Assembly: GCA_041650895.1 (NCBI GenBank)
Contig: JBAZKF010000001.1
Location: forward strand, 17,685 to 81,684
Reading direction: 5' to 3'
Length of the DNA stretch: 64,000 bases
DNA from: Patescibacteria group bacterium
GTDB lineage: Bacteria > Patescibacteriota > Patescibacteriia > 2-01-FULL-39-33
The notes below the pieces were generated by a model, which worked only from the letters and a program-made list of their open reading frames with translations, ran no database searches and was not told the origin of the DNA. A program made the position numbers and the translations under genes. Each line of letters begins with the position of its first letter. Position 1 is the first letter of the stretch. Shown here piece by piece: positions 4,231 to 62,239 of the stretch.

Positions 4231-4239
4231 AAAAAATAA

Positions 4240-5019: not shown

Positions 5020-5100
5020 AACTGTTACAATTATACCATGCTCTGGCGTCAGAGCAAACAAAACGCCGCCCTCTTTGCGGGAGAGCGGCGGCGGAAAAAA

Positions 5101-5406: not shown

Positions 5407-5482
5407 ATTTGTTTGTTTTGGTATTTACTTAACTATTTTAGCTCAATTGGCGTCTTTTGTCAAGGCGGTTATTCAGGGGTAT

Positions 5483-5523
5483 AAAAAAAACTCTTTCCGG
5501 CTTAATTGAGCCAAAAAGAGTTT
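5483..5523 (-). terminator. intrinsic terminator after the radical SAM operon
   Basis: AAACTCTTT...AAAGAGTTT stem with a nested GGCT/AGCC hairpin, followed on the minus strand by an 8-T run. Confidence 0.45.
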
Positions 5524-5533
5524 GCCTAATGTC

Positions 5534-19336: not shown

Positions 19337-19342
19337 TCAAGA

Positions 19343-19378
19343 AATAAAATAAAAAGCGTTCCTTTTAGGGAACGCTTT
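19343..19378. terminator. intrinsic terminator (10-bp stem) between convergent genes
   Basis: AAAGCGTTCC-loop-GGAACGCTTT with A/T-rich flanks. Confidence 0.5.
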
Positions 19379-19396
19379 GTTAGTCAAAGTGCTTAC

Positions 19397-20002
19397 TTAA
19401 TAACGACTGTTAGGGCTGTCGGGCAGATTTTTATGCGGACGGAGTTGAATGGCATCATCCAATTTGAAGCGTTTACGTGTAGATTGATAATGAGCCTGTA
19501 AGAGTAGCGGTTGTTTGCCTTCCAATTGATTACCCCAACGCAGTTTACAGAGCCCGATGAGATACTCGGCATGGCCGTTCTGAAACGCCGGTGACTCATG
19601 GATGGCGCGAATCGGACGCCATTCATCATCCGTTAAGATTAAAATACTATTTTTGTAAGGCGAGACGCGGAAGAGACGGGTAAGATAATCAATTTTGCTG
19701 GTGTAATGCATGAGCGAGAATAGCCACATCCAATATTGGTGCAGTTCGTTATCTTGAATCGGTTCGCCGTTTAGGCGGCAGGTCATAGCTATTGCCGGTG
19801 GCAATTTGAATTCTTTAATAAGAAGTGAGCGCGGTATTTTGGCGTAATTCATGCTGGCAAGGCATAGGGTTACCATTATATCTTTATTCGGCCGTTGGCC
19901 GGTTGCTTTGGCCTCCCAGAATTGAACTACGGCCTTCAGGTAATTATCAATAATTTGTCTGTATTCTTCCAAAGCGTCGCTACAGCCACAAGACATGTTC
20001 AA
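19397..20002 (-). CDS. hypothetical protein inserted between prfA and prmC
   Basis: 201-aa ORF, Cys/Trp-rich; no recognisable domain. Confidence 0.45.
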   Translation of the reverse strand: MNMSCGCSDALEEYRQIIDNYLKAVVQFWEAKATGQRPNKDIMVTLCLASMNYAKIPRSLLIKEFKLPPAIAMTCRLNGEPIQDNELHQYWMWLFSLMHYTSKIDYLTRLFRVSPYKNSILILTDDEWRPIRAIHESPAFQNGHAEYLIGLCKLRWGNQLEGKQPLLLQAHYQSTRKRFKLDDAIQLRPHKNLPDSPNSRY

Positions 20003-29487: not shown

Positions 29488-29569
29488 ATTTGATATGTCG
29501 TAGATATTTGAATTAGTACGCGTTAGTTTTTTTATTTGAGTTAAGACAAAACAAAAATCACGTCCATAG

Positions 29570-29640
29570 CTCGGGGACAGGGGCTCGAACCCCGATTAAC
29601 GGCTTCAAAGGCCGCTGTCCTACCATTAGACGATCCCCGA
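29570..29640 (-). tRNA. tRNA-Gln (anticodon UUG)
   Basis: cloverleaf folded by hand: U1-A72 acceptor, D-arm GTCT/GGAC, anticodon loop CUUUGAA, T-loop TTCGAGC; 71 nt, no encoded CCA. Confidence 0.8.
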
Positions 29641-48570: not shown

Positions 48571-48680
48571 ACTTCAATCATAGCCGATATTTTTCAGAAA
48601 AACAAACAAGGGAGGGAAGATTATTTTTATAGACCCGATGTTTACTGAGATTGTTATCAGACTGCTTAAAAATTATCAAT

Positions 48681-48706
48681 AAAAAATGCCGGAATGGATT
48701 TCCGGC
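48681..48706 (-). terminator. intrinsic terminator
   Basis: GCCGGAA-TGGAT-TTCCGGC perfect hairpin; T6 on the minus strand. Confidence 0.5.
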
Positions 48707-48748
48707 GTGGTGCTTGAATGGTCAGATTTTAAAAGCGTAATTTTTTAC

Positions 48749-49480
48749 CTAACAGCCTTTGCTTTTCGGCTGGTTGAATTTAGCAAAGCTGGACAGTAAA
48801 ATTCGTTCAAAATATCCCTTGCAGAAATTGTACAAGTTTTCATATAACCTGACCACGAATTCTCGCAGGATCGTATGTGGCATTGATAGCGGCCACCAAA
48901 CCCACCAGAAGAGCAGCTTCTCCTTGTATTTTTCGAGACTGGGTTTGTTATCGACGCTATATGTATCGCAAGAGTTATCCCATTCTCGCAATAGATCATC
49001 GGGGATTTGGGCTCCCTTAATATTTTTATGGTTAAGGAACCATTCAAGGTGCTTGCCATATTTTTCCGCCAAAGAAATACTCAGCAACTTTAATTTGATG
49101 CTTGCATAAACCAGGCCGATCACGATGTAGCCGACAATAATGCCGACGATAACCCAGGGATTGGCGTAGGCGTATTTAAATAGCATCATAAAGGGATTAA
49201 AGGCGCCAACAAGCCACATAATAACCAGGCCGACCGCAATCAAAATTATGGGCGTTCGCCATTCGTCATCAGTGCAGTAGCATATAAGGATAACCAGCCA
49301 GACGGAACAATAAATCCAGAAGCCCAGTCCGCCGAATACGAAAAGATTGAATATGGTCCAACTGCTCAACCCCGCGAAGAACGATGAAGCTGGGACACTA
49401 TCGGCCTGACTGACCACGCAACCAGACATAGCTATTGCACCCAGTGAGAATAACAGAGTCAACAACAACGCCTTTTTCAT
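48749..49480 (-). CDS. hypothetical membrane protein
   Basis: 243 aa, N-terminal signal/TM and 3-4 TM helices. Confidence 0.5.
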   Translation of the reverse strand: MKKALLLTLLFSLGAIAMSGCVVSQADSVPASSFFAGLSSWTIFNLFVFGGLGFWIYCSVWLVILICYCTDDEWRTPIILIAVGLVIMWLVGAFNPFMMLFKYAYANPWVIVGIIVGYIVIGLVYASIKLKLLSISLAEKYGKHLEWFLNHKNIKGAQIPDDLLREWDNSCDTYSVDNKPSLEKYKEKLLFWWVWWPLSMPHTILREFVVRLYENLYNFCKGYFERILLSSFAKFNQPKSKGC

Positions 49481-49751
49481 TTGTCCGTCTCCCTTGCCTT
49501 GTTTGTTCCTTTATTTTTTTATCAAACAAATTGATTATTAAAGAGCGTCGATCGTCATTAATTAATTGTCTAGCGCATCCCTTCCTCCTTTGGTTGTCTC
49601 AACTTTATCTGGAATGATAATTAAGCTTAGCAAAGATGTCGCATATTGTCAATATATAGCGAATAACTGACAGTATTCCAACAAAAGTCGGCAATTTTAA
49701 AGATTTTATTTAAAAAACAATGATTTTTGGTATTTGGGATATTTGGATTTT

Positions 49752-50984
49752 TTAGGCGGCGTTGTCGCCGGCGACATAGCCGGTGGTCCAGCAGATTTGT
49801 AAATTGAAACCGCCCGTCGGTCCGTCTAAATCCAAGATTTCTCCGGCTAAATATAAGTTAGCAATGATTTTTGAACGCATGGTTTTAGGGTCGATTTCAT
49901 TGATTTTGACTCCGCCCTTGGTGATTATGGCTCTGTCATACCCTTCTAATCTATTAATGGCGGCCTTAAGTCCCTTGAATGATGAAACCAATGATTTTCT
50001 TTCTGCGCGAGTAACAACGTTGGCTTGCTTGTCAGGATCGATTCCGGCTGACTTTAAGGCAACATCAATCAGTTTGGTTGGCGCCAAAACGGTTAGAGAA
50101 TTTTTTATGGTTTTATTTTTTTGTGCTTGCCATAATTCCCTAAGATTAGTATCAATTTGGCTCTCGGTTTTCGATGGAAAAAAGTCCACAATGATGGCGG
50201 TGTCGGAGCTTAGCCTGTCAGTAATCAGTCGGCTTAGGTTAATCGCGGCCGGACCGCTGATGCCGTTAGCGGTAAAGATGATATCGCCGTTTTCTTGAGC
50301 TATTAAGCGGTTGTTTTGTTTGACTGTTAACTTGATTTTTTTAAAGCTTACGCCCTCTAATGATTTATTGGTCCTTTCTTGCAAGACGATCGGAGTTAAG
50401 GCTGGCCGCGGCTCAATGATTGTGTGTCCTAATTTTTGCAACCAAGCATAGGCTTCGCCGGTTGAGCCGGTCAAGGGGTAAGATTTGCCCCCGGTTGCCA
50501 ACAGATAGTTTTTAGCTGTTATTTCTTCGCCCTTGGCTAAAATAATTTTTTGGATTTTATTATTTTGAGCAACGATTTTTTTTACGGCTGAGTCGGTTTT
50601 TATTTTTATCTGATATTTTTTTAAGTCAGCAAGCAGGGCTTTTAGGATGTCTCGCGCCTGATCGCTTTGAGGCAGGACCCGATTATTGTCCTCTACTTTC
50701 GTTTTGACTCCCCTGGCGGCAAAAAAAGCGATTGCATCTGCGGCGTCAAATTGGCTGAAGCCGGATAGTAAAAATTTGCCATTATTGCCGTAGCAATCAG
50801 CCAGTATTCTATGGTTGTCAATTTTATTGGTTAGGTTGCAACGGCCATTGCCGCTAAGCAGCAATTTTATTCCCGGTTGGCGGTTTTTTTCAATTATAAT
50901 CACTTTAGCGCCGAGTTCCCCGGCGCGATTGGCGGCCATTAGTCCGGCTGGTCCGGCACCGATTATCGCTAAATCATAAATCAT
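49752..50984 (-). CDS. HI0933-like FAD-dependent oxidoreductase
   Basis: MIYDLAIIGAGPAGLMAA Rossmann FAD motif, GNGRCNLTN, C-terminal GGFNLQ motif. Confidence 0.8.
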   Translation of the reverse strand: MIYDLAIIGAGPAGLMAANRAGELGAKVIIIEKNRQPGIKLLLSGNGRCNLTNKIDNHRILADCYGNNGKFLLSGFSQFDAADAIAFFAARGVKTKVEDNNRVLPQSDQARDILKALLADLKKYQIKIKTDSAVKKIVAQNNKIQKIILAKGEEITAKNYLLATGGKSYPLTGSTGEAYAWLQKLGHTIIEPRPALTPIVLQERTNKSLEGVSFKKIKLTVKQNNRLIAQENGDIIFTANGISGPAAINLSRLITDRLSSDTAIIVDFFPSKTESQIDTNLRELWQAQKNKTIKNSLTVLAPTKLIDVALKSAGIDPDKQANVVTRAERKSLVSSFKGLKAAINRLEGYDRAIITKGGVKINEIDPKTMRSKIIANLYLAGEILDLDGPTGGFNLQICWTTGYVAGDNAA

Positions 50985-51059
50985 ATTGATAATTATATCA
51001 TGGTTTATGTTATTTATATATTGTTTATTTAATAGTGAAATAAAAACCACTGAAATTAA

Positions 51060-51452
51060 TCAGCGGTGTTTAATTAGTAGCTTAGGAATAAACAATTGGC
51101 AAGCTTCTGCTAGAAGCCGGCGATGGCAATGTTCGCATGTTTCTTCAATACACAGCAAAGTCACGTCATTTTTTATCGCCAAACAAGCCAAGTAATTTAT
51201 TAATGAACATTTTGGTTCTTGTTTGATCTCGTTAAGATATCTTGTTTCAAACTCCGCCCAAGAAATGCCTCTCTTGCAGTAATCACCGATGAGTTTAGGC
51301 GACGGACCCAGAATAGGCATATGAATATCAAATTTTTGTATCCGCGCATCAGGAGTGATGCCGTCTGAAAGTGTATGCCGGCTCATAATTGATATCCGTA
51401 TTCCGTCTTGGGGCTCAGGACTTTCCAGAATGCATTTGGTGAATAAAGCCAT
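51060..51452 (-). CDS. DUF488-family protein
   Basis: 131 aa from an ATG with AAGAAAGGA Shine-Dalgarno; C-terminal CEHCHRRLL typical of DUF488. Confidence 0.55.
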   Translation of the reverse strand: MALFTKCILESPEPQDGIRISIMSRHTLSDGITPDARIQKFDIHMPILGPSPKLIGDYCKRGISWAEFETRYLNEIKQEPKCSLINYLACLAIKNDVTLLCIEETCEHCHRRLLAEACQLFIPKLLIKHR

Positions 51453-51552
51453 TATGGATTCCTTTCTTAGGTACGAACGAACTATATGAAGTGTTAGCTT
51501 ACAATTTTTAATTGTTTCCGTCAATACTAATACTTATTTGCTTAGAATATCC

Positions 51553-52209
51553 CTATTTAACTCCTTTCCATTCATTGAAAAATTCCTGCAAAAATTGTTC
51601 CATATATTTGTGCCTTTTAGCGGCCATTTTCTTGCCCGTAACCGTGTTCATATTATCTTTTAGTTTCAATAATTTGCTATAGAAATGATGAATGGTGGAT
51701 ATATCCTCTTTATTTTCATCAAAGTATTTGCGTTTAAACGATTTTTCCGGAACCCACATATTTAAAGATTGAGCGCCTCCGTATGCAAATGTCCGACCAA
51801 TTCCAATAGCTCCCATAGCATCTAAGTTATCGGCATCCTGAATAATCAAGGTTTCAATGTCCGAGACGGTTTTGCCTCTTTTAGAAAAATTATATTCCTC
51901 GTGGTATTCAATACAATGCAGTATTTTATTTTTTTGTTCAGAAGTCAATTTTGTCTCATTAATAATTTTATTGATTTTTGGCAATGAATTTTTTGGCGAG
52001 CAAAAATTGCCAGTCTCGTTTCCTATGATTCTGTGGATGTCGTGCAAAAACGCTCCAACGGCAATAACTGTCCTATCCCCCCCTTCCTTCTTTTGCAAAT
52101 AATTAGCGATGTTCAGAACCCTTTTCAAATGGTAAATATCGTGCCCACTACTTTCATTAGAAAATAATGATTTTATTTTTTTTTCAATTTTACTAATAAT
52201 CATTTCCAT
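51553..52209 (-). CDS. HD-domain phosphohydrolase
   Basis: H..HDIYHLKR ... HDIHR HD motifs. Confidence 0.75.
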   Translation of the reverse strand: MEMIISKIEKKIKSLFSNESSGHDIYHLKRVLNIANYLQKKEGGDRTVIAVGAFLHDIHRIIGNETGNFCSPKNSLPKINKIINETKLTSEQKNKILHCIEYHEEYNFSKRGKTVSDIETLIIQDADNLDAMGAIGIGRTFAYGGAQSLNMWVPEKSFKRKYFDENKEDISTIHHFYSKLLKLKDNMNTVTGKKMAAKRHKYMEQFLQEFFNEWKGVK

Positions 52210-52266
52210 AAGTATTTTTTATTCATAACATAATGTTACCAAAACATCATAAAAAAATCCAATGTT

Positions 52267-52315
52267 CACATCTCGGTATCAAAAATATCCCTAAGGGGGT
52301 GTTTTGTCGCATCTG
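52267..52315 (-). promoter_or_regulatory. conserved ~50-nt upstream element, copy 1 (terminator hairpin plus promoter region), upstream of the HD gene
   Basis: about 85% identical to 56112-56164; minus-strand sense CAGATGCGACAAAA-hairpin-TATTTTTGATACCGAGATGTGAAC. Confidence 0.5.
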
Positions 52316-52326
52316 CGGGACAGGGA
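52313..52326. repeat. 14-nt direct repeat of the tRNA-Gln(CUG) 3' end (putative distal att site of the island)
   Basis: CTGCGGGACAGGGA identical to 61635-61648. Confidence 0.55.
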
Positions 52327-52489
52327 TTTACGCGCTCGGTTGTCGCCAAAAAGCGACAACCCCACTTGTCCTGAGTAGCCGTCAATCGCTCCCAGGGTCG
52401 CGATTGCCGTCGCTCAATTATCCGTCTCGGCTTCTGCCTCGACTTATATCTCGCTCGCTACCTGTTCGAATCACTCACATAGACAAATA

Positions 52490-52520
52490 AAAATACAGCT
52501 AATTAAGCTGTATTTTTATT
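52490..52520. terminator. bidirectional intrinsic terminator
   Basis: ATACAGC-TAATTAA-GCTGTAT perfect hairpin flanked by an A-run and a T-run. Confidence 0.55.
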
Positions 52521-52629
52521 TGCTGACTGACTCGGTCTAGAACCGATCCATATCAAGTATTATAAGGGTTTTCGGAATTATTTTCAGAGGCAATTTTAGG
52601 CGTCTCGGTCGGGTATAAATATGTTATGA

Positions 52630-52781
52630 AATGCGACAAATGCGACAGTACTTTGATACTATTTTAAATATAGAATTTTGGACAAAAAAATGAGACAAAT
52701 GAGACACTAAAACAGGATTTTCAAAAAGAAACACAAAAGTGTAATTTGTGTCTAATTTTAGATTAAAATTTGATGAGACAG
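52630..52781. repeat. iteron-like short direct repeats in a non-coding AT-rich stretch
   Basis: AATGCGACA x2 (tandem), AATGAGACA x2 (tandem) plus a third TGATGAGACAG; hairpin ACACAAA...TTTGTGT. Confidence 0.5.
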
Positions 52782-52871
52782 TAAAAAATTGACTGCCTCA
52801 TTTTCAATAAATAAAAACCGCCACCCAAGGATAAACCCTGAGTGGCGTGATGTGTGCAATTGCCGCGTTGC

Positions 52872-53243
52872 TTAGCGACTGATTGGCAGGAATCCCAGCG
52901 ATCCCCAATGATCGCGTTCGAGGGAGCGATCAAACGTCAATCCGTCGGAGCCGAAGTGGCCAATAGAAACGCGATCGTAGTTTCCGCCATAAGAGACTGT
53001 CGGCGTTGCAGGCGGAATCAAATCGGGTTGATTGAAATGAGCGCTGAGCAGCTCGTCGAGCGTGGCCAGCCGATAACCCCACCACTTGGAAAGGATGGAG
53101 ATTCGTCTGAAATTCGCGCCGCGCGCCGCTTGGAAGAAGGCCAATTCGCCTGCACCTTGCGGGCGGTAAGCCTTTTGCCGCAGCACTTTGCCGCGCAAAT
53201 AGGCCACGATAACCCACAAATAATCCAGAATAGTCTGTTTCAT
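52872..53243 (-). CDS. hypothetical protein
   Basis: 123 aa; AGGAGAG Shine-Dalgarno 7 nt before the ATG; lies in a locally GC-rich patch with overlapping alternative ORFs. Confidence 0.5.
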   Translation of the reverse strand: MKQTILDYLWVIVAYLRGKVLRQKAYRPQGAGELAFFQAARGANFRRISILSKWWGYRLATLDELLSAHFNQPDLIPPATPTVSYGGNYDRVSIGHFGSDGLTFDRSLERDHWGSLGFLPISR

Positions 53244-53257
53244 GTCGTATCTCTCCT

Positions 53258-53779
53258 TTATTGGATTTCGTTGATGGCTTTAGTGAGCGAATCGCTGTCT
53301 TTTGCGTAGCTGACGCGTTGCGCCGTTTCAAAAAGTTTGAATATACCATCACAGAAGTTTCCGCGATGAGTATTCTGATAGAGGGCAATCATCTTTTGGA
53401 TAACGATCATGAGCGCCCGCGCCTTCTTGGAATCTTTCGATTCATCCAAGATATGGTCAGTTCTGAGCTCTTCCTCGAATCTCATCTCGCCCTTGCGAGT
53501 ATCGGAGAGATAGTATATGGATACTCTGACGTTTTCATTCTTGTAATCCTTCGGTTCGACGACGATTCCCTCGATTTCCCAAATCGTTGCGGTCGGATGC
53601 CGCCTTCTGGCGGAAACAATCTTGACGGTAATATCATACGCGTCATGGGTGTGGATATAGTCGGGCGTATGAAATTCTACTGTCCGCTCACCCAGCTCAG
53701 TATCGAAAAGGGCAAGCATGAGATCGAGTTTTGATGGACCGCCGTCCACCAGGTGTGTTTCTTCTTTTCTTTGTGTCAT
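53258..53779 (-). CDS. hypothetical protein
   Basis: 173 aa; AAGGAG Shine-Dalgarno before the ATG. Confidence 0.5.
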   Translation of the reverse strand: MTQRKEETHLVDGGPSKLDLMLALFDTELGERTVEFHTPDYIHTHDAYDITVKIVSARRRHPTATIWEIEGIVVEPKDYKNENVRVSIYYLSDTRKGEMRFEEELRTDHILDESKDSKKARALMIVIQKMIALYQNTHRGNFCDGIFKLFETAQRVSYAKDSDSLTKAINEIQ

Positions 53780-54036
53780 ACGACACTCCTTTCAATGTGC
53801 TGCTGCGCATTAGCCGAGGAACGCGCACAACCTCCTTATTCCCCGCCATTCAAGCAAGGAAACGACTTAGCCATACAGCTAAGAATTACTATATATTAGC
53901 ATATAGACATTATTTTGTCAAGTATTTTATCCACAATTAATCGAAATATTATGTATATTTACCTAAAATTAAACAAAAAAATGCCAGTAATTATTGGCAT
54001 TTTTATCGCAAATATTAATAATTCTATCTTTTCTTA

Positions 54037-54342
54037 CTATTTCTGCTTTTCCTGGTATTCTAACACTTTTTCCATCGGAGAAAGGCCGCCCAAAGCCATA
54101 TGAGGGAAGTAATTCCAAGCGTCAGTTATTGTTTCTAAAATATTACTTAATTCCGAGACATCACCGCCCCGGTCGAACCTAGCAATAATCGTCGACATAT
54201 CATCATTATCTTCTTCTTGATAAATGGCATCAAGAATATCTTCCAGTGCAAAGTCGCTCTCGGTTTCTGCAAGCAAATCAATAATGTCTTGTTGGATTGC
54301 TTCGCCTTCAGATAGGATTTGTTGTTGGGAAAGGGGTTGCAT
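54037..54342 (-). CDS. hypothetical acidic protein
   Basis: 101 aa, D/E-rich. Confidence 0.4.
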   Translation of the reverse strand: MQPLSQQQILSEGEAIQQDIIDLLAETESDFALEDILDAIYQEEDNDDMSTIIARFDRGGDVSELSNILETITDAWNYFPHMALGGLSPMEKVLEYQEKQK

Positions 54343-54603
54343 AATGATTTATTATAAAATATATACCACTTGAAAATGAAAAAGATTTTACGCCTGAAGA
54401 TTTTGCTTGGTATAATATGACAATAATAATTGCTGATAATAAAAAACATGACATCTCAAATGATGAGTTGAAGAACAGAGTCAAAGATTTCCTTTTATTT
54501 GCAATAAGATAATATTGAATACTAAAAATACCACGGCAAAACCGTGGTATTTTTGAAGCTAAATAATTGAGGGGACTCAGTCATTTGAATTAGCGTGTAT
54601 TGG

Positions 54604-54750
54604 CTGGAGGTTTTTAATAAAATCCGAACCGAATTTCAGAAAAGCTTGCCCTGAGCGAAGTCGAATGGGTCATAATCGGTCGGGCGGAACCTGCCTGCCG
54701 GCAAACAGGCGAAACATTTGGACGACTGAGGCGGAATTGCAATTTCCAAT
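54604..54750 (+). repeat. ~150-bp island repeat element R1
   Basis: about 90 nt near-identical to R2 (AAATCCGAACCGAATTTCAGAAAAGCTTGCCCTGAGCGAAGTCGAATGGGTCATAA...), shared 3' end GAAACATYTGGACGRCTGAGGCGRAATTGCAATTTCCAAT containing palindrome GAAATTGCAATTTC. Confidence 0.75.
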
Positions 54751-54775
54751 CTTTTAGTGATATTAATAATAGAAT

Positions 54776-55525
54776 CTAGAAATGTTCATTCGGTTTTTCT
54801 CTCAATTCATTCTTAATCCCATATTCGGGATGCTTCTTTATCCAGTCTGAAATGTCAGTCCATTTAAGGCCATGAAAACCAAATTGACCATTCCATTTGG
54901 CACCGTATTCTTTATTTTTTTCAAAACTGAATTTGTGCGCTAATTTAACTGGAGCGAATTTTATGCCTAAGTTTTCTAAATATTTACGTTTAATGACAGA
55001 AATAATCCAATCTTCATTTTCCGCATATTTGTGGCTTGGTGAATCTTCAATATTAATACTTGGATCATTTTGCAATATTTCTAGCAGTTTCTTGCTTCGC
55101 AGACTAAAACCGCCATTGCCAACAACCAACTTATCTTTTACCCATAATGGTGCACCAATATAATCGTATTTCAAATATTCATCATCCCAAGCAGTGGAAT
55201 TCAAAATAAAACCGTCATATTGAATAATCAAAACAAAATCAGTCTTTATATAATTATTCAACTCCTTGAGAATGAATTGCGAGTATTTTTTAATCGATTC
55301 TACGGGGTTGATTTTGATGACATTTTTATTATCGGAAGAAATTGATGATAATAATTTAATATCGGCAAATTCAAAATCTTTGCAACAAATTTCTGCGGCT
55401 TTTATAAGTCGATCAATATCAACACAGTCAAGACCAAACAGTGTTACATTTTTTAGTTTTTTCATTTCTATGGATTGATAAAATGTTTTTGAGTTCTGAA
55501 AATTGTAATTAGCTAACACTGACAC
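54776..55525 (-). CDS. hypothetical protein (GTG start at 55525; alternative ATG at 55465 giving MKKLKNVTLFGLDC...)
   Basis: 249-aa ORF in cassette between R1 and R2. Confidence 0.5.
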   Translation of the reverse strand: MSVLANYNFQNSKTFYQSIEMKKLKNVTLFGLDCVDIDRLIKAAEICCKDFEFADIKLLSSISSDNKNVIKINPVESIKKYSQFILKELNNYIKTDFVLIIQYDGFILNSTAWDDEYLKYDYIGAPLWVKDKLVVGNGGFSLRSKKLLEILQNDPSINIEDSPSHKYAENEDWIISVIKRKYLENLGIKFAPVKLAHKFSFEKNKEYGAKWNGQFGFHGLKWTDISDWIKKHPEYGIKNELREKPNEHF

Positions 55526-55588
55526 GGTCTCATAATAGTTATCTAAAAAATTATTGCCCCATCACGCCACTCACTATAGCTTTTGTAA

Positions 55589-56065
55589 TCATTTTTTAAT
55601 TGAATGCTTATCGGAAAATTTAGGGTTTGCAATGAATTCAGAAGTATCCGTATTGATAAATCCGATGATGTTTTCTGGAGAAATAACATTACTATCTTCC
55701 GTTTTAGAAAAAATATGTTCACTTGATGCCTTGATTGATCTTTCACGTGCTGAATATCCTCCAAAATCAGAAGAGTCGAATCCTTTGGGTACTGCAATTA
55801 GAATAATAATTGTTCTGCCACCATAATCCCAACCATCTAACTTGTGTAGCAAAGAATCTTGATTTTCTGGAATTCTACAGGCGATATCATGTATGGCGTT
55901 CCATTTGGTTCGAAGTCCTTTTTCAAGAATACTATCAGCTATTTCTCGATTTGAAACTCCATGACCCCAAATATCAACTGATTGTTGATATGTTTCCAAT
56001 GTTTTTAACAAATGGGTGTGTCGACTTTCAGAAGATTTTTTTTCAAACTTGTTCATAAATCTCAA
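55589..56065 (-). CDS. hypothetical protein
   Basis: 158-aa ORF preceded by upstream-element copy 2. Confidence 0.5.
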   Translation of the reverse strand: MRFMNKFEKKSSESRHTHLLKTLETYQQSVDIWGHGVSNREIADSILEKGLRTKWNAIHDIACRIPENQDSLLHKLDGWDYGGRTIIILIAVPKGFDSSDFGGYSARERSIKASSEHIFSKTEDSNVISPENIIGFINTDTSEFIANPKFSDKHSIKK

Positions 56066-56111
56066 GTTTATTTTACTATCTTGTTGTTAAAATATCAAAC
56101 AGTTCTAACGT

Positions 56112-56164
56112 CCACATTTCGGTATACAAAAATACCCCTAAAATAGGGGCATTTTGTCGCATCT
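56112..56164 (-). promoter_or_regulatory. conserved upstream element copy 2
   Basis: CACATTTCGGTATACAAAAATACCCCTAAAATAGGGGCATTTTGTCGCATCTG; hairpin CCCCTAAAATAGGGG. Confidence 0.5.
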
Positions 56165-56318
56165 GGAGGTCTTTAATCAAATCCGAACCGAATTTCAGAA
56201 AAGCTTGCCCTGAGCGAAGTCGAATGGGTCATAACCGGTCGGGCGGAATTCCCCCCCAAACCCCTCCTTCCGCCCGACCGAAACATCTGGACGGCTGAGG
56301 CGAAATTGCAATTTCCAA
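56162..56318 (+). repeat. ~150-bp island repeat element R2
   Basis: contains a perfect 12-bp hairpin GGTCGGGCGGAA-(TTCCCCCCCAAACCCCTCC loop region)-TTCCGCCCGACC. Confidence 0.75.
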
Positions 56319-56338
56319 TTTTTCTTTGGCGGCATTAA

Positions 56339-56773
56339 TTATATAATTTTATCAACCCACAGAACAGTGCCTTCTCTTTTAAATCCATATCTTTCGATAA
56401 ACTTAGAAAATAACTCCTGATCTTCGGCATTCACACAAAGCATAATATAAGTATATCCAAGATCTTTAACTTGCTTCAATCCTTCCTCTGTTAATTTTGC
56501 GGCCACTCCCAATCCGCGAGCGGATGGTGTCACGTAAAGATTTTCCCAAGTAATTTTCTTTGTTGGTATGTGAGCGGAATAAAAAGAAAAGCCAATAATT
56601 TCATTTTTTGTTTTTGCCACTAACAGAACATCACTAGGACTTTGACACCATTTTTTTAATTGTTCTTTACTCCAAAAAATTCCACTAGCACTAGCAAATT
56701 CTTTCTGTAAAGCACCTAGTTTATAAATCTCATCAATGTCCGTAATATTCATTCTAGATATTTGAAAATCCAT
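56339..56773 (-). CDS. GNAT family N-acetyltransferase
   Basis: acetyl-CoA binding motif region ...ARGLGVAAKLTEEGLKQVKDLGY...; 4 nt after the cyclodipeptide synthase gene. Confidence 0.8.
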   Translation of the reverse strand: MDFQISRMNITDIDEIYKLGALQKEFASASGIFWSKEQLKKWCQSPSDVLLVAKTKNEIIGFSFYSAHIPTKKITWENLYVTPSARGLGVAAKLTEEGLKQVKDLGYTYIMLCVNAEDQELFSKFIERYGFKREGTVLWVDKII

Positions 56774-56776
56774 ATA

Positions 56777-57478
56777 TTATTCGATATCGGCTATGCCTGT
56801 TTTATTTATAATTCTTAATTTATTCCTTAAACCATTATACTCATTACTTTTAATAATTTTTACTACTAATTCATCAAATTTACCTAATCCCGGATACAAA
56901 ATAACTGAATACAATTCACCACGATTAATAATCGAAACTCCATTCAAAAATAATGGCAATTCTTGTAGGACATAAAGAGCCACTGACTCGGCTCGATCTT
57001 TTGAAATAGTGCGTCCTCGTATTTTTAGCATTTCGTTAGAAATTTCCATTACCGAATTATAAAAAGCCTTTTGTTCAGAAAATTCCCTCATTAATACCTC
57101 TCGTTGTTTAACAAATTTTGGCGTTAAAGCATCATCATAGTTGGCGATAACAACCTTCTTTTGATCTTTTGCGGGCAATCTTGAGACGATTACTTCGACT
57201 TCTTGTCTTTTCTCATCTTCCATTTCGAAAGCCTTTTTTAATGATTGTGCTCTGCTTAAATTATCAATATACCTTAAATTAGAAACCTGAAGTCTCCCTG
57301 GGATTAAAATTAACAAGGATTTTTTAGTATGTATGAGGCCAAAATCAATAAGTTTTTCAAGATTATTTTTCGTGAACCATTTATTACCAAAACTTAAACC
57401 TATCCAAAGATTATATCTTTTTTTAAAGATATAATCTTTGGGAATTAATAATGTTTCTTTTATTTGAATTATTTCCAT
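56777..57478 (-). CDS. tRNA-dependent cyclodipeptide synthase (CDPS), XYP-type
   Basis: IGLSFGNKWF (catalytic Ser in the G-x-S-x-GN-x-x-F motif, compare AlbC IGISAGNSYF), LYVLQELPLF (AlbC NYVLAEAPLF; Tyr/Glu catalytic pair), SVILYPG (Y-P); about 233 aa as expected. Confidence 0.75.
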   Translation of the reverse strand: MEIIQIKETLLIPKDYIFKKRYNLWIGLSFGNKWFTKNNLEKLIDFGLIHTKKSLLILIPGRLQVSNLRYIDNLSRAQSLKKAFEMEDEKRQEVEVIVSRLPAKDQKKVVIANYDDALTPKFVKQREVLMREFSEQKAFYNSVMEISNEMLKIRGRTISKDRAESVALYVLQELPLFLNGVSIINRGELYSVILYPGLGKFDELVVKIIKSNEYNGLRNKLRIINKTGIADIE

Positions 57479-57514
57479 ATACGATTAATCTTATATGATC
57501 ATACCAAAATTATT

Positions 57515-57739
57515 TTATTCACAATAATAAAATACGCCACCATATTGATTTTTTTCTTGAAAGCTTAGGCTATCATAATCTTCAACACAGCTTCTAAATT
57601 TATCGTATTTATCTTCAGATTCATAATAATTATCTGACCACTCCTCAGCAGTCATACTTTCATATTTACCAATACTACAACCACTTAAAAACAGGAGAAA
57701 TAGTAATGACATAAATACAATGTAATATTTTTTTATCAT
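57515..57739 (-). CDS. small lipoprotein
   Basis: 74 aa; signal peptide with lipobox LSGC; acidic, 4 additional Cys. Confidence 0.5.
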   Translation of the reverse strand: MIKKYYIVFMSLLFLLFLSGCSIGKYESMTAEEWSDNYYESEDKYDKFRSCVEDYDSLSFQEKNQYGGVFYYCE

Positions 57740-57789
57740 AACAAATATACATTTTATTTTAGATTCAAACTAATATTATAAAATTAACT

Positions 57790-59604
57790 TTATTTAATCC
57801 CAGCCACTTTTTTTTCTTCGTCTGTCATTAGATGCGCGGGATTAATAGACTCCCACCAATAATTATTAAGACCTCTTTTTTGTATCGTTGTGATGTATTC
57901 AATTAATTTTAGTCTTACCTCAGTTTCTTGTAAATTCATTAATCCTGCAAGCTGTATACGAATATTTTTATCAAATAGAATTTTTTTTACGAATGGCATA
58001 ATTCTCTCTCCATAATATCTGCCAAAATCAGCCCATAAAGGTTCCCCATTATGCTCGGACAGTACAACAAGTAGGAAATTGGCCTGAAATTGAAAATTTT
58101 CAATTTTTCCATCCATTTTTGGTACTAATTCAATAAGCCAATCTTGATTTTTTAAATATTCCCTAATGTATTCATTCACTTTAGTTGAATGACCAGTCAG
58201 GGCACGAGTATAATGAAAATGATTATCTTCTAAAAAAGACATCGGTGGCTGATCAAAGTAATTTGGATTATCGAACTTAGTTTCAAGTAAAATTTTGAGT
58301 GGCGCATAATTATCTCTGGCTATACAAATAGTAGCTATAATGTATAAGATTTCAACAATTATAACTTCCGGAACCGCAATCAGAGAAATTAGACCGGATT
58401 TATTATTTGTAAGTTCAACTAAAGCTGTCAGATATTCACAGTATATTTTTATCTGATTTTTGTTGCCATATACTGAAATTGTAGCACCTAAATATATATA
58501 CTGATAACTACTCGCTTCCATGCGCGAAATAGCCTCTGGTATGCGATCCACATCCTGACCAATTTCCTGAAAAATTATTTCCCATTCCTTTTTTATTTTA
58601 GTGATTAATTTGTGGCACAATCTCTCAAAATTTAATATATTAATAGTTTCCACACTAGACCCGGAAGAACCAACAACAAAATTAATTGTTTCCTGCAAAA
58701 GTTTGTTTTTTTCATCCATCGTTAAATCAATCACTGGCACAGAAAAAATAGCATTTTGTAATTCTGGCGTTTTTGGTATCTCAATGGTTTCGGGCTTTAA
58801 ATGCAACCTCTTTTTAAACACTGGGAGAGTGAGATTACCCTCTAATTTACCTAACATGGTTGGTGTTTGAGTGTGTTTCCATTTGTCCCTAGCACGAGAG
58901 CTTACACCTTCTGCGATTGGACTAAAAATGTCTGTAGCTGAAAAATATTCACTAGGACGATTTTTTTGGAGTTCATCAAGTACATAATATGTAAATAAAC
59001 CATTTTTAAGTTCAGGATCTTCGATTGAAAGTTCATCATCTTTACTGGCAGTAAAAATCATACTACCATTACCAATTACTGTATTTGAAAATGATTTAAT
59101 ATTTTTAAATCCCTTGGTATTGGGGATTGGGTAATTTTTGGCATTTTTACTTACTGACCCACTAAAACAAGAATCAATAAAAATTAAATTTACTTTTGAT
59201 TTTAGGGATGTGAAAATATTTTTTATATCCTCTACTGATAAACAAGTATTTACAATATCATGAGTTGCATCATACGGCACTAAAAAGCTAAGTCCTGAAT
59301 TAATATTATTAGGATCATCAACTAATGCTCCGTGACCGGAATAGAAAAAGAAGAAAACGTCATCTGACTCGATATTATCCAGTAATTCTTTTCCTAACGC
59401 AGTCTTGATTTCTGAAAGAGTCGCCTCTTCATCAACTAAAAGTTTATTATACCCAATATTGCTAATATTTTGTTGAAATAATGAGAAAAACTCTGTTGCA
59501 TCTTTTTCTGCAAACGCTAGATTTGTAATTTGATTCTTATGCTTAGAAATTCCAATCGCAACAATATGATGTTTCATGAAATTAATTATTTTAGTAATTC
59601 CCAC
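57790..59604 (-). CDS. caspase-like (peptidase C14) domain protein with ~350-aa unknown C-terminal domain
   Basis: HIVAIGISKH...FFFYSGHGA (His) ... LIFIDSCFSG (Cys) dyad; GTG start with GGGAG Shine-Dalgarno, alternative ATG at 59577. Confidence 0.7.
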   Translation of the reverse strand: MGITKIINFMKHHIVAIGISKHKNQITNLAFAEKDATEFFSLFQQNISNIGYNKLLVDEEATLSEIKTALGKELLDNIESDDVFFFFYSGHGALVDDPNNINSGLSFLVPYDATHDIVNTCLSVEDIKNIFTSLKSKVNLIFIDSCFSGSVSKNAKNYPIPNTKGFKNIKSFSNTVIGNGSMIFTASKDDELSIEDPELKNGLFTYYVLDELQKNRPSEYFSATDIFSPIAEGVSSRARDKWKHTQTPTMLGKLEGNLTLPVFKKRLHLKPETIEIPKTPELQNAIFSVPVIDLTMDEKNKLLQETINFVVGSSGSSVETINILNFERLCHKLITKIKKEWEIIFQEIGQDVDRIPEAISRMEASSYQYIYLGATISVYGNKNQIKIYCEYLTALVELTNNKSGLISLIAVPEVIIVEILYIIATICIARDNYAPLKILLETKFDNPNYFDQPPMSFLEDNHFHYTRALTGHSTKVNEYIREYLKNQDWLIELVPKMDGKIENFQFQANFLLVVLSEHNGEPLWADFGRYYGERIMPFVKKILFDKNIRIQLAGLMNLQETEVRLKLIEYITTIQKRGLNNYWWESINPAHLMTDEEKKVAGIK

Positions 59605-59792
59605 GCTTCAACTCCCAAGGCATTGGCTAATTTATATAAATTTTCTAATGTAGGGTTTACCCGGCCACTTTCCACCCGGCAGATATAGGCGCGGTCAATT
59701 CTGCTTGAACGAAAAACGTCGCCTTGAGTTAGGCCTTTTTCCTCTCGTATCCGTTTAAAATTAACGGCAAGTTTTTTGCTTAATTTATGCAT
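59586..59792 (-). CDS. XRE-family helix-turn-helix transcriptional regulator
   Basis: 68 aa; IREEKGLTQGDVFRSSRIDRAYICRVESGRVNPTLENLYKLANAL. Confidence 0.75.
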   Translation of the reverse strand: MHKLSKKLAVNFKRIREEKGLTQGDVFRSSRIDRAYICRVESGRVNPTLENLYKLANALGVEAWELLK

Positions 59793-59951
59793 AGTTATTC
59801 ACAGATATTTTACCAATTATTGTATATCTTAACAATATTGTTGTATAATACAATAGAGAAGTGGGGGTTTGTGTTAAAAAAAAGAAAAAGTTTGATTTTG
59901 TCCAAAATATAGTTCGAGCCGATTTTTTTAATCTGGTTCTTTGGCGGTTTT

Positions 59952-60069
59952 ATTCCGCCTCAGCCGTCCAGATGTTTCGGTCGGGCGGAAGGAGGGGTTT
60001 GGGGGGGGAATTCCGCCTGACCGATCATAATTTTTGTTGAAATTCGGTTCGGATTTGTTCATAAACACC
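59952..60069 (-). repeat. island repeat element R3 (inverted orientation relative to R1/R2)
   Basis: reverse complement shares AAATCCGAACCGAATTTCA and the GG(T)CRGGCGGAATTCCCC...CCTCCTTCCGCCCGACCGAAACATCTGGACGGCTGAGGCGGAAT hairpin region with R2. Confidence 0.7.
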
Positions 60070-60144
60070 CAGCCAGTTTCGCTTTTCATTTTTTAAAACA
60101 GAATTCCAACCGTTTTTTGGCTTAAATTCAAATTTTTTGCCTTG
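60070..60144. repeat. 75-bp perfect inverted repeat, left copy (flanks the recombinase gene)
   Basis: exact reverse complement of 61563-61637, checked base by base. Confidence 0.85.
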
Positions 60145-60206
60145 GTTCCGATTACTATCGGAACGCCAGAATCAAACTTTTTCTTTTTCTTTAATTCAAT
60201 ACAAAT

Positions 60207-61694
60207 ATGAAATACTTTCTTTACGCCCGCAAGTCGACAGACGAAGAGGAGCGTCAAGTCCTTTCAATTGAAGCCCAGCTCGCAGAGCTGAAGGAGTTAG
60301 CCGCCAAAGAAAAATTGGAAATTGCTGACTCGCTCTGCGAGTCTAAAACCGCCAAAGAACCAGGCCGAAAAATTTTCGGCGAAATGCTCGCTCGGATTGA
60401 AAAAGGTGAAGCCGACGGAATTTTAGCGTGGCACCCAGATAGATTGGCCAGAAATAGCGTTGATGGTGGGAAGATTATCTACATGGTGGATATTGGCCAG
60501 ATTAAAACGCTGAAATTCCCGACTTTTTGGTTTGAGAATACTCCGCAAGGTAAATTCATGCTCAATATCGCTTTCGGCCAGAGCAAATACTATATTGATA
60601 ATTTAAGCGAAAATGTTAAGCGCGGATTCAGACAAAAGTTAAGGCGTGGCGAATATCCCAACAAAGCGCCTATTGGCTATCTTAATGACCGCATGGCTAA
60701 AACCGTGCTTATTGATCCTCTGCGCGCCAAGCTGATAATCAAGATGTTTGAGATGTACAGCACGGGAGAATTTTCGCTTAAATTTCTAAAAGATAAGTTT
60801 TGCGATATCGGTCTGACCAGTAAGCGAGGAAAAATCCTGACTGTCGGCATGATTTCTAATATATTGAGCAATCCCTTTTATTGCGGAGTATTCAAGTTTA
60901 ATGGCGAAATATACCAAGGCAAGTACGAGCCGATTATTTCCAAGAAGCTTTTTGATGAAGTTCAGGCGGTAATGCGGGATCGCGGCCGGCCGCTCGGGCA
61001 AGACAAGCACGACTACGCATTTACAGGACTAATGAAATGCAAATGCGGCGCCTGCATTACCGCTGAACGGCAAAAAGGCCATATCTATTATCGCTGTACG
61101 AAAAAGCTCGGAGCCTGCGATGAAAAGTATATCCGCGAAGAAAACTTGCTGGAGCAATTCTATGGCCTTTTTCAAAAAGCTTCTTTGTCTGATGACTGGA
61201 TTGACAAGATGCTCGCCAAACTGGACGAGGAACAGAAAAGCGATATGAAGTCATCTATTGGTCTGATTGATGAGGTTAAAGCGCAAATTGGTGGCCTAGA
61301 GAGCAAGTTAGACAAGTTATTAGATGACCGATTAGAAGGGTTATTGGACAAGGACGACTATTTGCGCAAGAAAGAACAGCTCATCAATCAAAAAATCACT
61401 TTTGAGGACAAAATCCAGTCAATCAGGCAAACAGGAAATAATTGGCTCGAACCGATGAGAGAATTCCTTTTCGCCAATAAACAAACCAAAAAAGTCGCCA
61501 ATGGCGGCGACCTTCTAGAGATTAGAGCATTTATTAAAAAAATCGGCTCGAACTTTATTTTGCAAGGCAAAAAATTTGAATTTAAGCCAAAAAACGGTTG
61601 GAATTCTGTTTTAAAAAATGAAAAGCGAAACTGGCTGCGGGACAGGGACTCGAACCCCGATACCACCCTCCAGAGGGGCGTGTCCTACCATTAG
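60207..61694 (+). CDS. large serine recombinase (resolvase/invertase catalytic domain plus recombinase and zinc-ribbon/coiled-coil domains)
   Basis: N-terminal YARKSTDEEERQVLSIEAQ (catalytic Ser region), RLARN, CxxC...CxxC zinc ribbon; 3' end runs through the right IR and antisense into the tRNA. Confidence 0.85.
   Translation: MKYFLYARKSTDEEERQVLSIEAQLAELKELAAKEKLEIADSLCESKTAKEPGRKIFGEMLARIEKGEADGILAWHPDRLARNSVDGGKIIYMVDIGQIKTLKFPTFWFENTPQGKFMLNIAFGQSKYYIDNLSENVKRGFRQKLRRGEYPNKAPIGYLNDRMAKTVLIDPLRAKLIIKMFEMYSTGEFSLKFLKDKFCDIGLTSKRGKILTVGMISNILSNPFYCGVFKFNGEIYQGKYEPIISKKLFDEVQAVMRDRGRPLGQDKHDYAFTGLMKCKCGACITAERQKGHIYYRCTKKLGACDEKYIREENLLEQFYGLFQKASLSDDWIDKMLAKLDEEQKSDMKSSIGLIDEVKAQIGGLESKLDKLLDDRLEGLLDKDDYLRKKEQLINQKITFEDKIQSIRQTGNNWLEPMREFLFANKQTKKVANGGDLLEIRAFIKKIGSNFILQGKKFEFKPKNGWNSVLKNEKRNWLRDRDSNPDTTLQRGVSYH
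61563..61637. repeat. 75-bp perfect inverted repeat, right copy, abutting the tRNA-Gln 3' end
   Basis: CAAGGCAAAAAATTTGAATTTAAGCCAAAAAACGGTTGGAATTCTGTTTTAAAAAATGAAAAGCGAAACTGGCTG. Confidence 0.85.
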
Positions 61695-61705
61695 ACGATC
61701 CCGCA
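61635..61705 (-). tRNA. tRNA-Gln (anticodon CUG)
   Basis: hand-folded cloverleaf; U1-A72; anticodon loop CUCUGGA; T-loop TTCGAGT; about 80% identical to the tRNA-Gln(UUG) at 29.6 kb. Confidence 0.8.
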
Positions 61706-61790: not shown

Positions 61791-61799
61791 TATAACACT

Positions 61800-62150
61800 G
61801 AGTATGACGGATAGTTACTCTTTGGCCTTAGGCCGAAGAGAGGAAAGTCCGAACACCCTTTTCGGCGCAAGCCGGAATGTCGCGGTAATGGGTAACGCCC
61901 ACCCGGACAGTCGTAAGGCTGGCCGAGGACCAGTTCCACAGAGACAATACTAACGAGATGCGCAAGTATTTCGCGAAAGGTGAAAAGTGTAGCGAAGTAT
62001 TAAGTTGAGAGTGAGATATCTCCTCAAATTAATGCCACCCTACTCAACTCCCAGCGATGGGCAGTTGTGGTAAACTCTACCTGGTGCAACCCCGTTTCGG
62101 GGGCTTGATCATGCCGGTAACGGCAATGACAGACAGATGACTATCGTTTT
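61800..62150 (+). ncRNA. rnpB: RNase P RNA (bacterial type A-like)
   Basis: universally conserved GAGGAAAGTCCG(AAC)... P4 strand, GGTAACGCC, terminal P1 pairing GGATAGT/ACTATC, followed by T-run. Confidence 0.7.
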
Positions 62151-62206
62151 TTACGGCCGCAAGGTTAGTAAAAAATACAGAATTCGGCTTATAGTCATAT
62201 TCAGTT

Positions 62207-62239
62207 AAAAAATACTTCGCTGCTGCGAGGTATTTTTTT
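62207..62239. terminator. bidirectional intrinsic terminator between rnpB and rnhA
   Basis: A6-TACTTCGC-TGCT-GCGAGGTA-T7. Confidence 0.6.

Follow-up and report, generated by a model that had tools for sequence, protein, structure and literature searches.

A composite island at the 3' end of a tRNA-Gln(CUG) gene in Patescibacteria, probably inserted by a large serine recombinase with attP inside its own reading frame

Archaeal integrases of the SSV1 type are tyrosine recombinases that target a tRNA gene and carry the attachment site of the element (attP) inside the integrase gene, which is split on integration. The mycobacteriophages BPs and Brujita, which use a tyrosine integrase, are said to have attP in the 3' end of their repressor gene, integration reportedly removing a degradation tag. 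Likewise, phiRSM reportedly enters a tRNA-Ser gene by means of a small resolvase-like serine recombinase without the Recombinase and Zn-ribbon domains; to our knowledge, it has neither an embedded attP nor a flanking inverted repeat. Serine integrases have not hitherto been regarded as tRNA-targeting enzymes (PMC7192596). Here we describe a locus in a 64,000-nt stretch of contig JBAZKF010000001.1 (hereafter, the window), from a Patescibacteria genome that is Buchananbacteria-like. In this locus, the gene of a large serine recombinase (LSR) adjoins an intact tRNA-Gln(CUG) gene. Based on comparisons with related sequences, we consider it very probable that the tRNA gene carries at its 3' end a 7,028-bp composite integrative island, inserted by the LSR encoded at the tRNA-proximal end of that island.

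The island spans positions 54607-61634 of the window, and its GC content of 0.349 is below the 0.425 of the whole window. A RecJ-based scan for relatives returned two loci, L002 and L003, with a RecJ that is 91% identical at the amino acid (aa) level; L003 belongs to Ca. Buchananbacteria. Both keep the order rnhA-rnpB-tRNA-Gln(CUG) with an orthologous tRNA, and in both the site is empty: the intact tRNA-Gln is followed directly by the counterpart of window positions 54523-54606 (87% identity; L003 13474-13557, L002 12746-12791). Given that this flank, denoted X3, lies directly 3' of the tRNA in L002 and L003, attB is X3-CTG-tRNA, attL is site B and attR is site E (Table 1). The inferred attP is X2-CTG-Y2b, where X2 is the 3' coding end of the recombinase gene itself (i.e., the P arm). 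The pre-insertion site, as it stands in L003 and L002, reads ...gaattagcRtgtattgg-CTG-cgggacagggaCTCGAACC (tRNA antisense), and the inferred attP reads ...gaaaagcgaaactgg-CTG-gaggtttttaataaaaTCCGAACCgaattt. Exchange within CTG would yield attL, with its core at 54604, and attR, with its core at 61635.

Both junctions have the composition such an exchange would leave. At the left, the native flank is followed by CTG and then by the natural 3' coding tail of the recombinase (the P' arm), as expected of a serine-recombinase attL; at the right, the 3' end of the recombinase gene is followed by CTG and the tRNA, whose 3' end faces the island. All four arm combinations were found, and the reading frame runs unbroken from the recombinase into the P' arms. 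The comparative reconstruction with the empty attB of L003 and L002 hence supports conservative exchange between attP and attB across a short shared core. The shared block is TGGCTG, to which the identity at the attR core widens against the native tRNA-Gln attB, and CTG alone for the Ps/X1 event described below; CTG is also the sole block common to junctions A, Ps, B, C, D and E and to the attL and attR of L071. In common with genomic islands, the locus has an intact tRNA at one end with an integrase gene near it, and an uninterrupted site in relatives. A displaced tRNA fragment of tens of bases was not found at the far end, as the true attL and attR share TGGCTG only. After excision, the circle junction would read ...gaaaagcgaaactggCTGgaggtttttaataaaatccgaacc, or gaggtctttaatc in the Y2a version, and the restored attB would read ...gaattagcgtgtattggCTGcgggacagggactcgaacc.

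The original prediction, made from the window alone, had placed here an element integrated at the 3' end of an intact tRNA-Gln(CUG) by an adjacent 495-aa LSR, with rnpB on the tRNA side. The empty sites in L002 and L003 confirm the integration, ARAGORN and Rfam agree on the tRNA, the protein has Resolvase, Recombinase and Zn_ribbon_recom domains, and Rfam places rnpB at 61799-62207. The left boundary, which had been set at 52313, has to be moved: with the native tRNA flank X3 at 54523-54606, the island starts at 54607 and measures 7.0 kb rather than 9.4 kb. An empty site had been expected to show an HD gene next to the tRNA, and the uninterrupted tRNA site does exist in relatives, although it is followed by the sequence of window 54523-54606 instead of the HD gene. 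The interval had also been described as AT-rich, which holds for 54.7-59.8 kb (GC 0.32) but not for 52.3-54.6 kb, where a GC of 0.42 is close to the window mean.

The recombinase gene had been expected to lie immediately inside the tRNA, whereas its open reading frame (ORF) runs antisense through the tRNA for 20 codons. These last 20 codons, including the stop (61635-61694), are antisense to the acceptor and T arms: CTG CGG GAC AGG GAC TCG AAC CCC ... The attP thus sits inside the recombinase ORF: its final conserved codons, which end in TGG (CCA in antisense), form the P arm, Leu477 forms the core, and the P' arm encodes a natural 16-aa tail and a terminator. Given this position of attP, integration would replace the tail of the enzyme and keep the tRNA intact. 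The last 16 codons would be exchanged for 19 read antisense through the acceptor and T arms, and the CCA of the tRNA would be restored by the P arm.

Self-comparison of the window revealed, beyond the repeats listed in the original prediction, three copies of a unit of about 150 nt, at 54604, at 56163 and, inverted, at 60072. These are the arms Y2b, Y2a and Y2' of sites B, C and D. As each encodes a tail in the recombinase frame (LEVFNQIRTEFQKSLP and a stop in Y2a, LGVYEQIRTEFQQKL and a stop in Y2') followed by a strong hairpin, the Y2 units are taken as the natural 3' end of the recombinase gene (i.e., as P' arms). Y2b and Y2a are 96.5% identical.

The same arrangement recurs among homologs of the recombinase, which were counted at E<=1e-20. 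Their C-termini diverge directly after a conserved Trp. The signature W-x4-[DE][SL]N, which is the antisense translation, in that frame, of CCA, discriminator, acceptor, T-stem and T-loop, is present in the tails of 62 of the 120 closest homologs, and the other 51,757 residues contain no match; a further 21 of the 120 stop at most 6 codons after the Trp. The overlap between the recombinase ORF and a tRNA was checked directly for tRNA-Gln(UUG) in L033-L035, tRNA-Asn in L036 and tRNA-Gln(CUG) in L068-L070. Natural tails (...IRTxF...) are found in a minority of homologs (P0055/61, P0074, P0101, P0105) and on contigs of un-integrated type (L037, L066, L067).

The original prediction had taken an exact 14-nt copy of the tRNA 3' end at 52313-52326 as the mark of attL and attR. 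The copy is real: CTGCGGGACAGGGA occurs exactly twice in the window, at 52313 and 61635, allowing one mismatch adds no further site, and the chance expectation is 0.01. A single 9.3-kb element (52313-61648) in the tRNA 3' end, bounded by this direct repeat, would account for a match to the last 14 nt of the tRNA in only two places. It would also account for the distal copy in L003, which carries the tRNA variant of L003 itself, A instead of T (tccctgAcccgcag in both copies), as maintained att repeats would, and for the X1-type sequence after the distal copy, which serves as B arm in L071 and at site C. However, L003 has the distal copy and no island of the 495-aa recombinase, the native flank X3 intervenes, and no P' arm follows to the right of 52326. 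In addition, window 52523-54356 is syntenic in L003, with 82-90% identity and normal GC, and its 173-aa gene belongs to a Patescibacteria-only family whose other members lie among MurG/FtsW/MraY or ribosomal genes. This synteny and core-gene context indicate that 52523-54356 is chromosome rather than cargo. The contexts of the 173-aa homologs also weaken the idea of 52.5-54.6 kb as an older mobile element, which had been considered separately. Finally, the 14-mer lies within an RNA structure that shows covariation. We therefore regard the 9.3-kb element as very improbable; the repeat lies 2.3 kb outside the 7.0-kb island.

The RNA segment in question has a homolog at L003 18655-18826 (+); it is GC-rich and on the strand of the tRNA in both genomes. 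The RNAalifold consensus of the two sequences has 40 pairs, 14 of them kept by compensatory double changes, with fold z-scores of -5.2 in L003 and a weaker -2.0 in the window. In L003, the RNA is closed by GCGGG/CCCGC and GGGACU/AGUCCC stems around three hairpins, and its 5' end, TGCGGGGTGGGACTCGAATAGGAC, resembles the tRNA-Gln 5' end, TGCGGGTTCGTCTAATGGTAGGAC. No Rfam family was found at either the gathering or the E-value thresholds, ARAGORN made no tmRNA call, and nhmmer over all loci collected detected the RNA in the window and L003 only. A metagenome scan with two of its conserved motifs gave one real locus of 25 (L042, the same contig as L003), the rest being chance matches, and a metagenome scan for the tRNA-Gln 3' end with the X1 flank gave no match. 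Given that island-free L003 has the distal 14-mer, and given the covarying fold, the 14-mer appears to be part of this RNA segment rather than of the recombinase island; the segment would be either a gene for a tRNA-Gln-like RNA or an ancient remnant of a tRNA that selection has maintained. The RNA follows a terminator hairpin at 52483-52520, and in the window the X1' terminator comes after the RNA.

A perfect 75-nt inverted repeat (60070-60144 / 61563-61637) encloses the recombinase gene and ends exactly at the cores, and an intact P' arm lies beyond the left repeat arm (site D). This arrangement recurs in L033, L034, L036, L037, L066, L067, L068 and L071, and an inverted repeat is present in every homologous locus examined, with 69-127 nt and 94-100% identity (79, 79, 77, 89, 127 and 88 nt are the lengths listed). 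The two copies are identical within an element (75 nt in the window, 69 nt in L071, 75 nt in L068), while between elements the repeat differs at 2-11 of 70 positions, which points to concerted evolution of the copies. As attP-type sites in inverted orientation stand on both sides of the recombinase, the recombinase cassette of the circular form would be flanked by a pair of inverted attPs. The repeat might serve cassette inversion (which would provide a natural tail in the integrated state), allow the element to enter in either orientation, or have a regulatory role. A flipped cassette would place the hairpin gttccgattactatcggaac (60145-60166) within about 100 nt of the tRNA 3' end and join the recombinase 3' end to ggtgtttatgaacaaatcc.

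The recombinase could be mainly an invertase that flips its own gene between sites D and E, the island now being immobile. A perfect repeat ending at the cores, arms that evolve in concert, a site D that offers an in-frame natural tail and the negative search for a directionality factor among the island ORFs would all fit. Nevertheless, recent integration is indicated by relatives with an empty site and by near-identical recombinases that sit at three targets with different cargo, and no flipped form of the subfamily was found in databases: the sole orientation found, in the element and in relatives of at least 90% identity, reads into the target. Moreover, serine integrases are not known to recombine attP-type with attR-type sites (PMC3783163). 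A predominant role as invertase is hence quite unlikely, and we return to integration by the LSR as the preferred reading. Two candidates for a flipped state were considered. The gene order of L067 (recombinase, XRE, RE_TaqI, all on one strand) is not conclusive, as the contig begins just upstream of site D, and the variable orientation of cargo among elements weakens the argument. A swap of P' arms between the window and L071 was rejected, since site D and attL of L071 are both of the Y2' type.

A further observation concerns the recombinase 5' leader (aaaagaaaaagtttgatttt), which is duplicated in inverted orientation (59874-59900 vs 60167-60194) on the XRE side of site D; the duplicates may be operator sites shared by two divergent promoters. 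Similarly, a 26-nt perfect reverse complement of recombinase codons 60300-60325 lies at the end of site C (56308-56333) and is present in the attL of L071 (6981-7006). In the free form, such a segment might permit long-range pairing, or control of the recombinase mRNA by an antisense mechanism.

Regarding site recognition, the distance from the core to a T-loop-derived motif is 12-19 nt in the targets (CTCGAACC in the tRNA, CTAGAACC in Ps) and 17-24 nt in all P' arms (TCCGAACC); the 17-24 nt spacing was also read by eye in L037, L066 and L067. In the LI integrase, the zinc-ribbon-domain (ZD) motif occupies positions 16-24 in attP and 11-19 in attB, a 5-bp shift (PMC3783163). The 5-bp offset between the attB and attP motifs of serine integrases is matched here in the right half-sites only. 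From these spacings, we infer that the zinc-ribbon domain may read the universal T-loop sequence.

Two other loci touch on target choice. The 6.5-kb contig L037 (1-107 and 6365-6503) has a natural-tail recombinase at one end and an intact tRNA-Ser(UGA) at the other, whose 3' end has a matching core and T-loop spacing (CGG + 12 nt). Given this match, attP and a candidate attB stand on one short contig, which may be a circular or permuted assembly. In the window, a second tRNA-Gln (UUG) at 29569-29640 is apparently unoccupied; homologous recombinases target tRNA-Gln(UUG) in L033-L035.

Besides its outer junctions, the island has an internal fossil junction at 56163 (site C), where X1 is joined through CTG to Y2a, and appears for this reason to be composite. 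In L071-L073, a recombinase that is 89% identical in DNA, with different cargo, is integrated exactly at the sequence equivalent to Ps, with a B arm of the X1 type (...ggggcgtttttcatgaa-CTG-Y2'). Since the occupied Ps has an X1-type B arm, the most likely reading of site C is a fossil attL that arose at a site of the Ps type in another genome. The right 5.5 kb of the island (56166-61634) would earlier have been integrated at such a Ps/X1-type pseudo-tRNA site in another genome. The 5.5-kb unit would then have moved here together with the 1.6-kb left cassette (DUF5672 and the 158-aa ORF), presumably by excision from an outer attL.

The left flank varies among genomes. The original prediction had treated the HD and DUF488 genes as core flank, an assignment we do not retain, as neither gene is conserved here in L003 or L071. 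The window has flavoprotein-DUF488-HD (48607-52312), L071 has flavoprotein-589aa-small ORFs (4085-6790), and L003 has a 116-aa ORF only (18606-19720). An HD protein of 88% identity occurs in an unrelated context in L039, and a search with the HD gene for HD next to tRNA-Gln found no genome with that arrangement, as L038 is an identical piece of the window and L039 and L040 have unrelated neighbours. A different serine recombinase of 437 aa occupies the neighbourhood in L003 (13669-16299, with a 428-aa ORF) and L071 (11865-15424), two radical-SAM/SPASM genes being its partners in L071-L073; its window counterpart is 167 bp only (54356-54523).

These variations raise another explanation, in which the interval from flavoprotein/MnmA to tRNA-Gln would be an accretion hotspot of several layers, with Ps and the RNA as older tRNA fragments, the 14-mer as an ancient boundary and the island as the newest layer. 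Three tRNA-Gln-like 3' ends do stand in series (the tRNA, Ps with 15/22 and the RNA 3' end with 14/14 positions), the content to the left varies between the window, L003 and L071, the latter two have another serine recombinase, of 437 aa, and an extra 207 nt between X1' and Ps, absent from L071, is flanked by CTG...CTG. However, the genes between Ps and the tRNA look chromosomal, and the RNA shows purifying and compensatory evolution, unlike decay. The postulated ancestral empty state was seen in no genome, the two metagenome scans being uninformative. Layered accretion is thus possible, yet somewhat unlikely. The same region has tandem 9-mers at 52630-52790 (atgcgacaa atgcgacag; atgagacaa atgagacac; gatgagacag), which are 85-89% conserved in L003 and L071 and may form a protein-binding array. 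The word atgcgacaaaa also starts X1 and X1'.

Some points weigh against the integration of a 7.0-kb island by this LSR. The empty site is seen in two close relatives only, and the searches turned up neither an excised circle nor an empty-site allele or inverted form of this same element. Three hypothetical natural-tail proteins (excised or inverted recombinase) were absent, by exact look-up, from a collection of 15 billion proteins. The left arms (P and B) have no clear dyad symmetry with the right arms, and none was found around CTG in attP; in P, a GGTTGGA motif lies about 32 nt from the core. Searches of the island ORFs with Pfam, PHROG, NCBIfam and padloc yielded no candidate recombination directionality factor, such factors being too diverse for this to carry much weight. 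Lastly, we infer, rather than reconstruct, the history of site C and the left cassette.

The recombinase has the sequence features of an LSR. PF00239 spans residues 4-149, with S10 in YARKST invariant in a 26-sequence alignment, and PF07508 and PF13408 are C-terminal to this catalytic domain, with C278, C280, C297 and C304 invariant in the same alignment. The protein matches the integrase family phrog_95 (9e-78) and has no sequence match to solved integrase DNA-binding domains. Most of the approximately 8000 homologs are in Patescibacteria metagenome-assembled genomes (MAGs), with some in Nitrospira, Brocadia and Thermodesulfovibrionales MAGs, and IMG/VR holds 5 relatives only. The cargo beside a conserved XRE-recombinase module varies among homologs and is often defence-like, as in MunI with MT-A70, MjaI with a methyltransferase (MTase), TaqI, AAA with an S8 protease, and an MTase with a helicase. 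The literature searched has no description of this recombinase family or of the embedded-attP design, although its coverage is incomplete and this is no proof of novelty.

Taken together, the design appears to combine a tRNA 3'-end target, an attP in the recombinase's own ORF with a tail swap, and twin identical inverted attPs. As a tentative proposal, which we hold possible rather than probable, these recombinases may form a large undescribed clade of LSRs specialised in tRNA 3' ends, with the embedded attP as a sensor of integration state and the twin inverted attPs homogenised. Such a clade would extend over Patescibacteria as well as the Nitrospira, Brocadia and Thermodesulfovibrionales MAGs, its zinc ribbon reading the universal T-loop.

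Table 1. Recombination sites, genes and RNAs of the island and its left flank, in window coordinates. Compositions are given as left arm - core - right arm.
Feature	Position	Strand	Composition	Evidence or remark
X1', terminator-like flank after the RNA	52258..52312	+		80% identical to X1 (56104-56162)
Site A	52313		X1' - CTG - tRNA-like 11 nt	
Structured RNA-like segment, ~170 nt	52313..52480	-		tRNA-Gln-like ends; last 14 nt are the repeat 52313-52326
Ps, unoccupied pseudo-attB	52523..52549 (site at 52523)	+	terminator - CTG - actgactcggtCTAGAACC	CTG + actgactcggtCTAGAACCgatcc; degenerate tRNA-Gln 3' half, 15/22 positions (own count)
Site B, true attL	54523..54755 (site at 54604)	+	X3 - CTG - Y2b	X3 with terminator 54523-54603; CTG 54604-54606; P' arm Y2b 54607-54755, encoding LEVFNKIRTEFQKSLP and a stop
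DUF5672 protein, left cassette	54776..55525	-		PF18922 2.5e-23
158-aa ORF, left cassette	55589..56065	-		called gene in L001
Site C, internal fossil attL	56104..56333 (site at 56163)	+	X1 - CTG - Y2a	B arm X1 56104-56162, terminator-like; CTG 56163-56165; P' arm Y2a 56166-56307
GNAT acetyltransferase	56339..56773	-		Acetyltransf_1 6e-11
Cyclodipeptide synthase	56777..57478	-		Pfam CDPS 1e-13; TIGR04539 4e-18, above cutoff; best solved relative PDB 7qat, 9e-19
Predicted lipoprotein, 74 aa	57515..57739	-		lipobox LSGC in translation; weak EexN-family match 8.5e-4, below cutoff
Caspase-like Peptidase_C14, 604 aa	57790..59604	-		Pfam 6e-18; padloc caspase 6e-10, PDC-S65 2e-8
XRE/C-protein-like HTH regulator	59586..59792	-		HTH_3 1e-13; padloc Control_protein 1e-10
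Site D, second, inverted attP-like site	59903..60144 (site at 60072, inverted)	-	X2 - CTG - Y2'	X2 copy 60073-60144; core 60070-60072; P' arm Y2' and hairpin 59933-60069; terminal 30-nt copy of recombinase codons IKKIGSNFIL 59903-59932
LSR, 495 aa	60207..61694	+		Pfam Resolvase (PF00239) 8e-20, Recombinase (PF07508) 9e-14, Zn_ribbon_recom (PF13408) 5e-7
Inverted repeat, right arm (X2 + core)	61563..61637	+		encodes recombinase C-terminal ...FEFKPKNGWNSVLKNEKRNW-L; 100% complementary to 60070-60144
Site E, attR	61635		X2 - CTG - tRNA	
attR core CTG	61635..61637	+		discriminator and first two 3'-acceptor bases (antisense tRNA); Leu codon 477 of the recombinase
tRNA-Gln(CUG), intact	61632..61705	-		ARAGORN; Rfam tRNA 53.7 bits; supplies B' arm of attR

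The cargo foreseen in the original prediction (a cyclodipeptide synthase, a GNAT, a caspase-like protein with an XRE regulator, and a lipoprotein) is supported by Pfam and the translations, and looks accessory, related to defence or to small molecules. The cyclodipeptide synthase and GNAT genes are adjacent and co-oriented (56339-57478), and the nearest solved relatives of the synthase are the 7qa* entries; enzymes of this type use aminoacyl-tRNAs, TIGR04539 being described as tRNA-dependent. The caspase-like protein keeps the His and Cys motifs (YSGHG, DSCFSG), has an NCBIfam caspase_w_EACC1 match of 1e-16, below the cutoff, and ends in a C-terminal domain without an assigned function. The XRE and recombinase genes are divergently oriented, and the XRE gene overlaps the 5' end of the caspase gene. 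An XRE gene adjoins the recombinase in L033, L034, L037 and L071-L073 as well. The XRE product probably acts as a regulator of the recombinase gene, of the caspase gene, or of both. The 158-aa ORF of the left cassette has no Pfam, PHROG, NCBIfam or padloc match. There are no PHROG structural matches among the island proteins, and homologous elements, at 2-10 kb, are not temperate-phage-like.

The change of island map from 9.4 kb to 7.0 kb shows how a plausible tRNA direct repeat can mislead, and leaves, adjoining the island, a covarying tRNA-Gln-like RNA without an Rfam family. Serine integrases are the main tools for inserting large pieces of DNA, and integrases that read the T-loop would have natural targets in every cell. 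A clade that recognises the T-loop and the acceptor end could explain the spread of small defence and accessory islands among reduced Patescibacteria genomes. If the tentative proposal above is true, the rewriting of the C-terminus would be a built-in sensor of the integrated or free state and could gate directionality or stability. The twin attPs would then let the cassette flip or the element enter either way, with defence cargo swapping between P' arms. Both the embedded attP with its tail swap and the identical twin attPs bear on how serine integrases control directionality.

In comparison with known systems, the recombinase resembles integrases of the A118/LI, Bxb1 and phiC31 class in its Resolvase/Recombinase/Zn-ribbon architecture, its short common core, the position of its gene beside attP, and attP and attB half-sites with a distal motif shifted by 5 bp. 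Unlike these phage-type serine integrases, it has a tRNA 3'-end target, an attP inside the ORF and a second, inverted attP-like site; the elements are small non-phage islands (2-10 kb), with few relatives in IMG/VR. As in the integration-dependent immunity reported for BPs and Brujita, attP lies in the 3' end of a gene of the element and integration alters the C-terminus of the protein, yet the gene here is that of the serine recombinase itself and the new tail would be antisense-tRNA sequence. SSV1 also has an integrase ORF that spans attP and a tRNA target, whereas here the last 16 codons only are exchanged and the ORF stays intact. With phiRSM, the locus shares a serine recombinase that integrates at a tRNA gene. 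The best NCBIfam resemblance of the recombinase is to CcrB (5e-29, 101 bits against a cutoff of 900), followed by CcrA (61 against 700) and CcrC (36 against 900). CcrA, CcrB and CcrC are likewise LSRs that move non-phage cassettes, including composite or tandem ones, into the 3' end of a conserved gene. The Ccr target, however, is rlmH and not a tRNA, and the ccr genes are neither at the junction nor flanked by their own 3' ends, as the recombinase gene is here.

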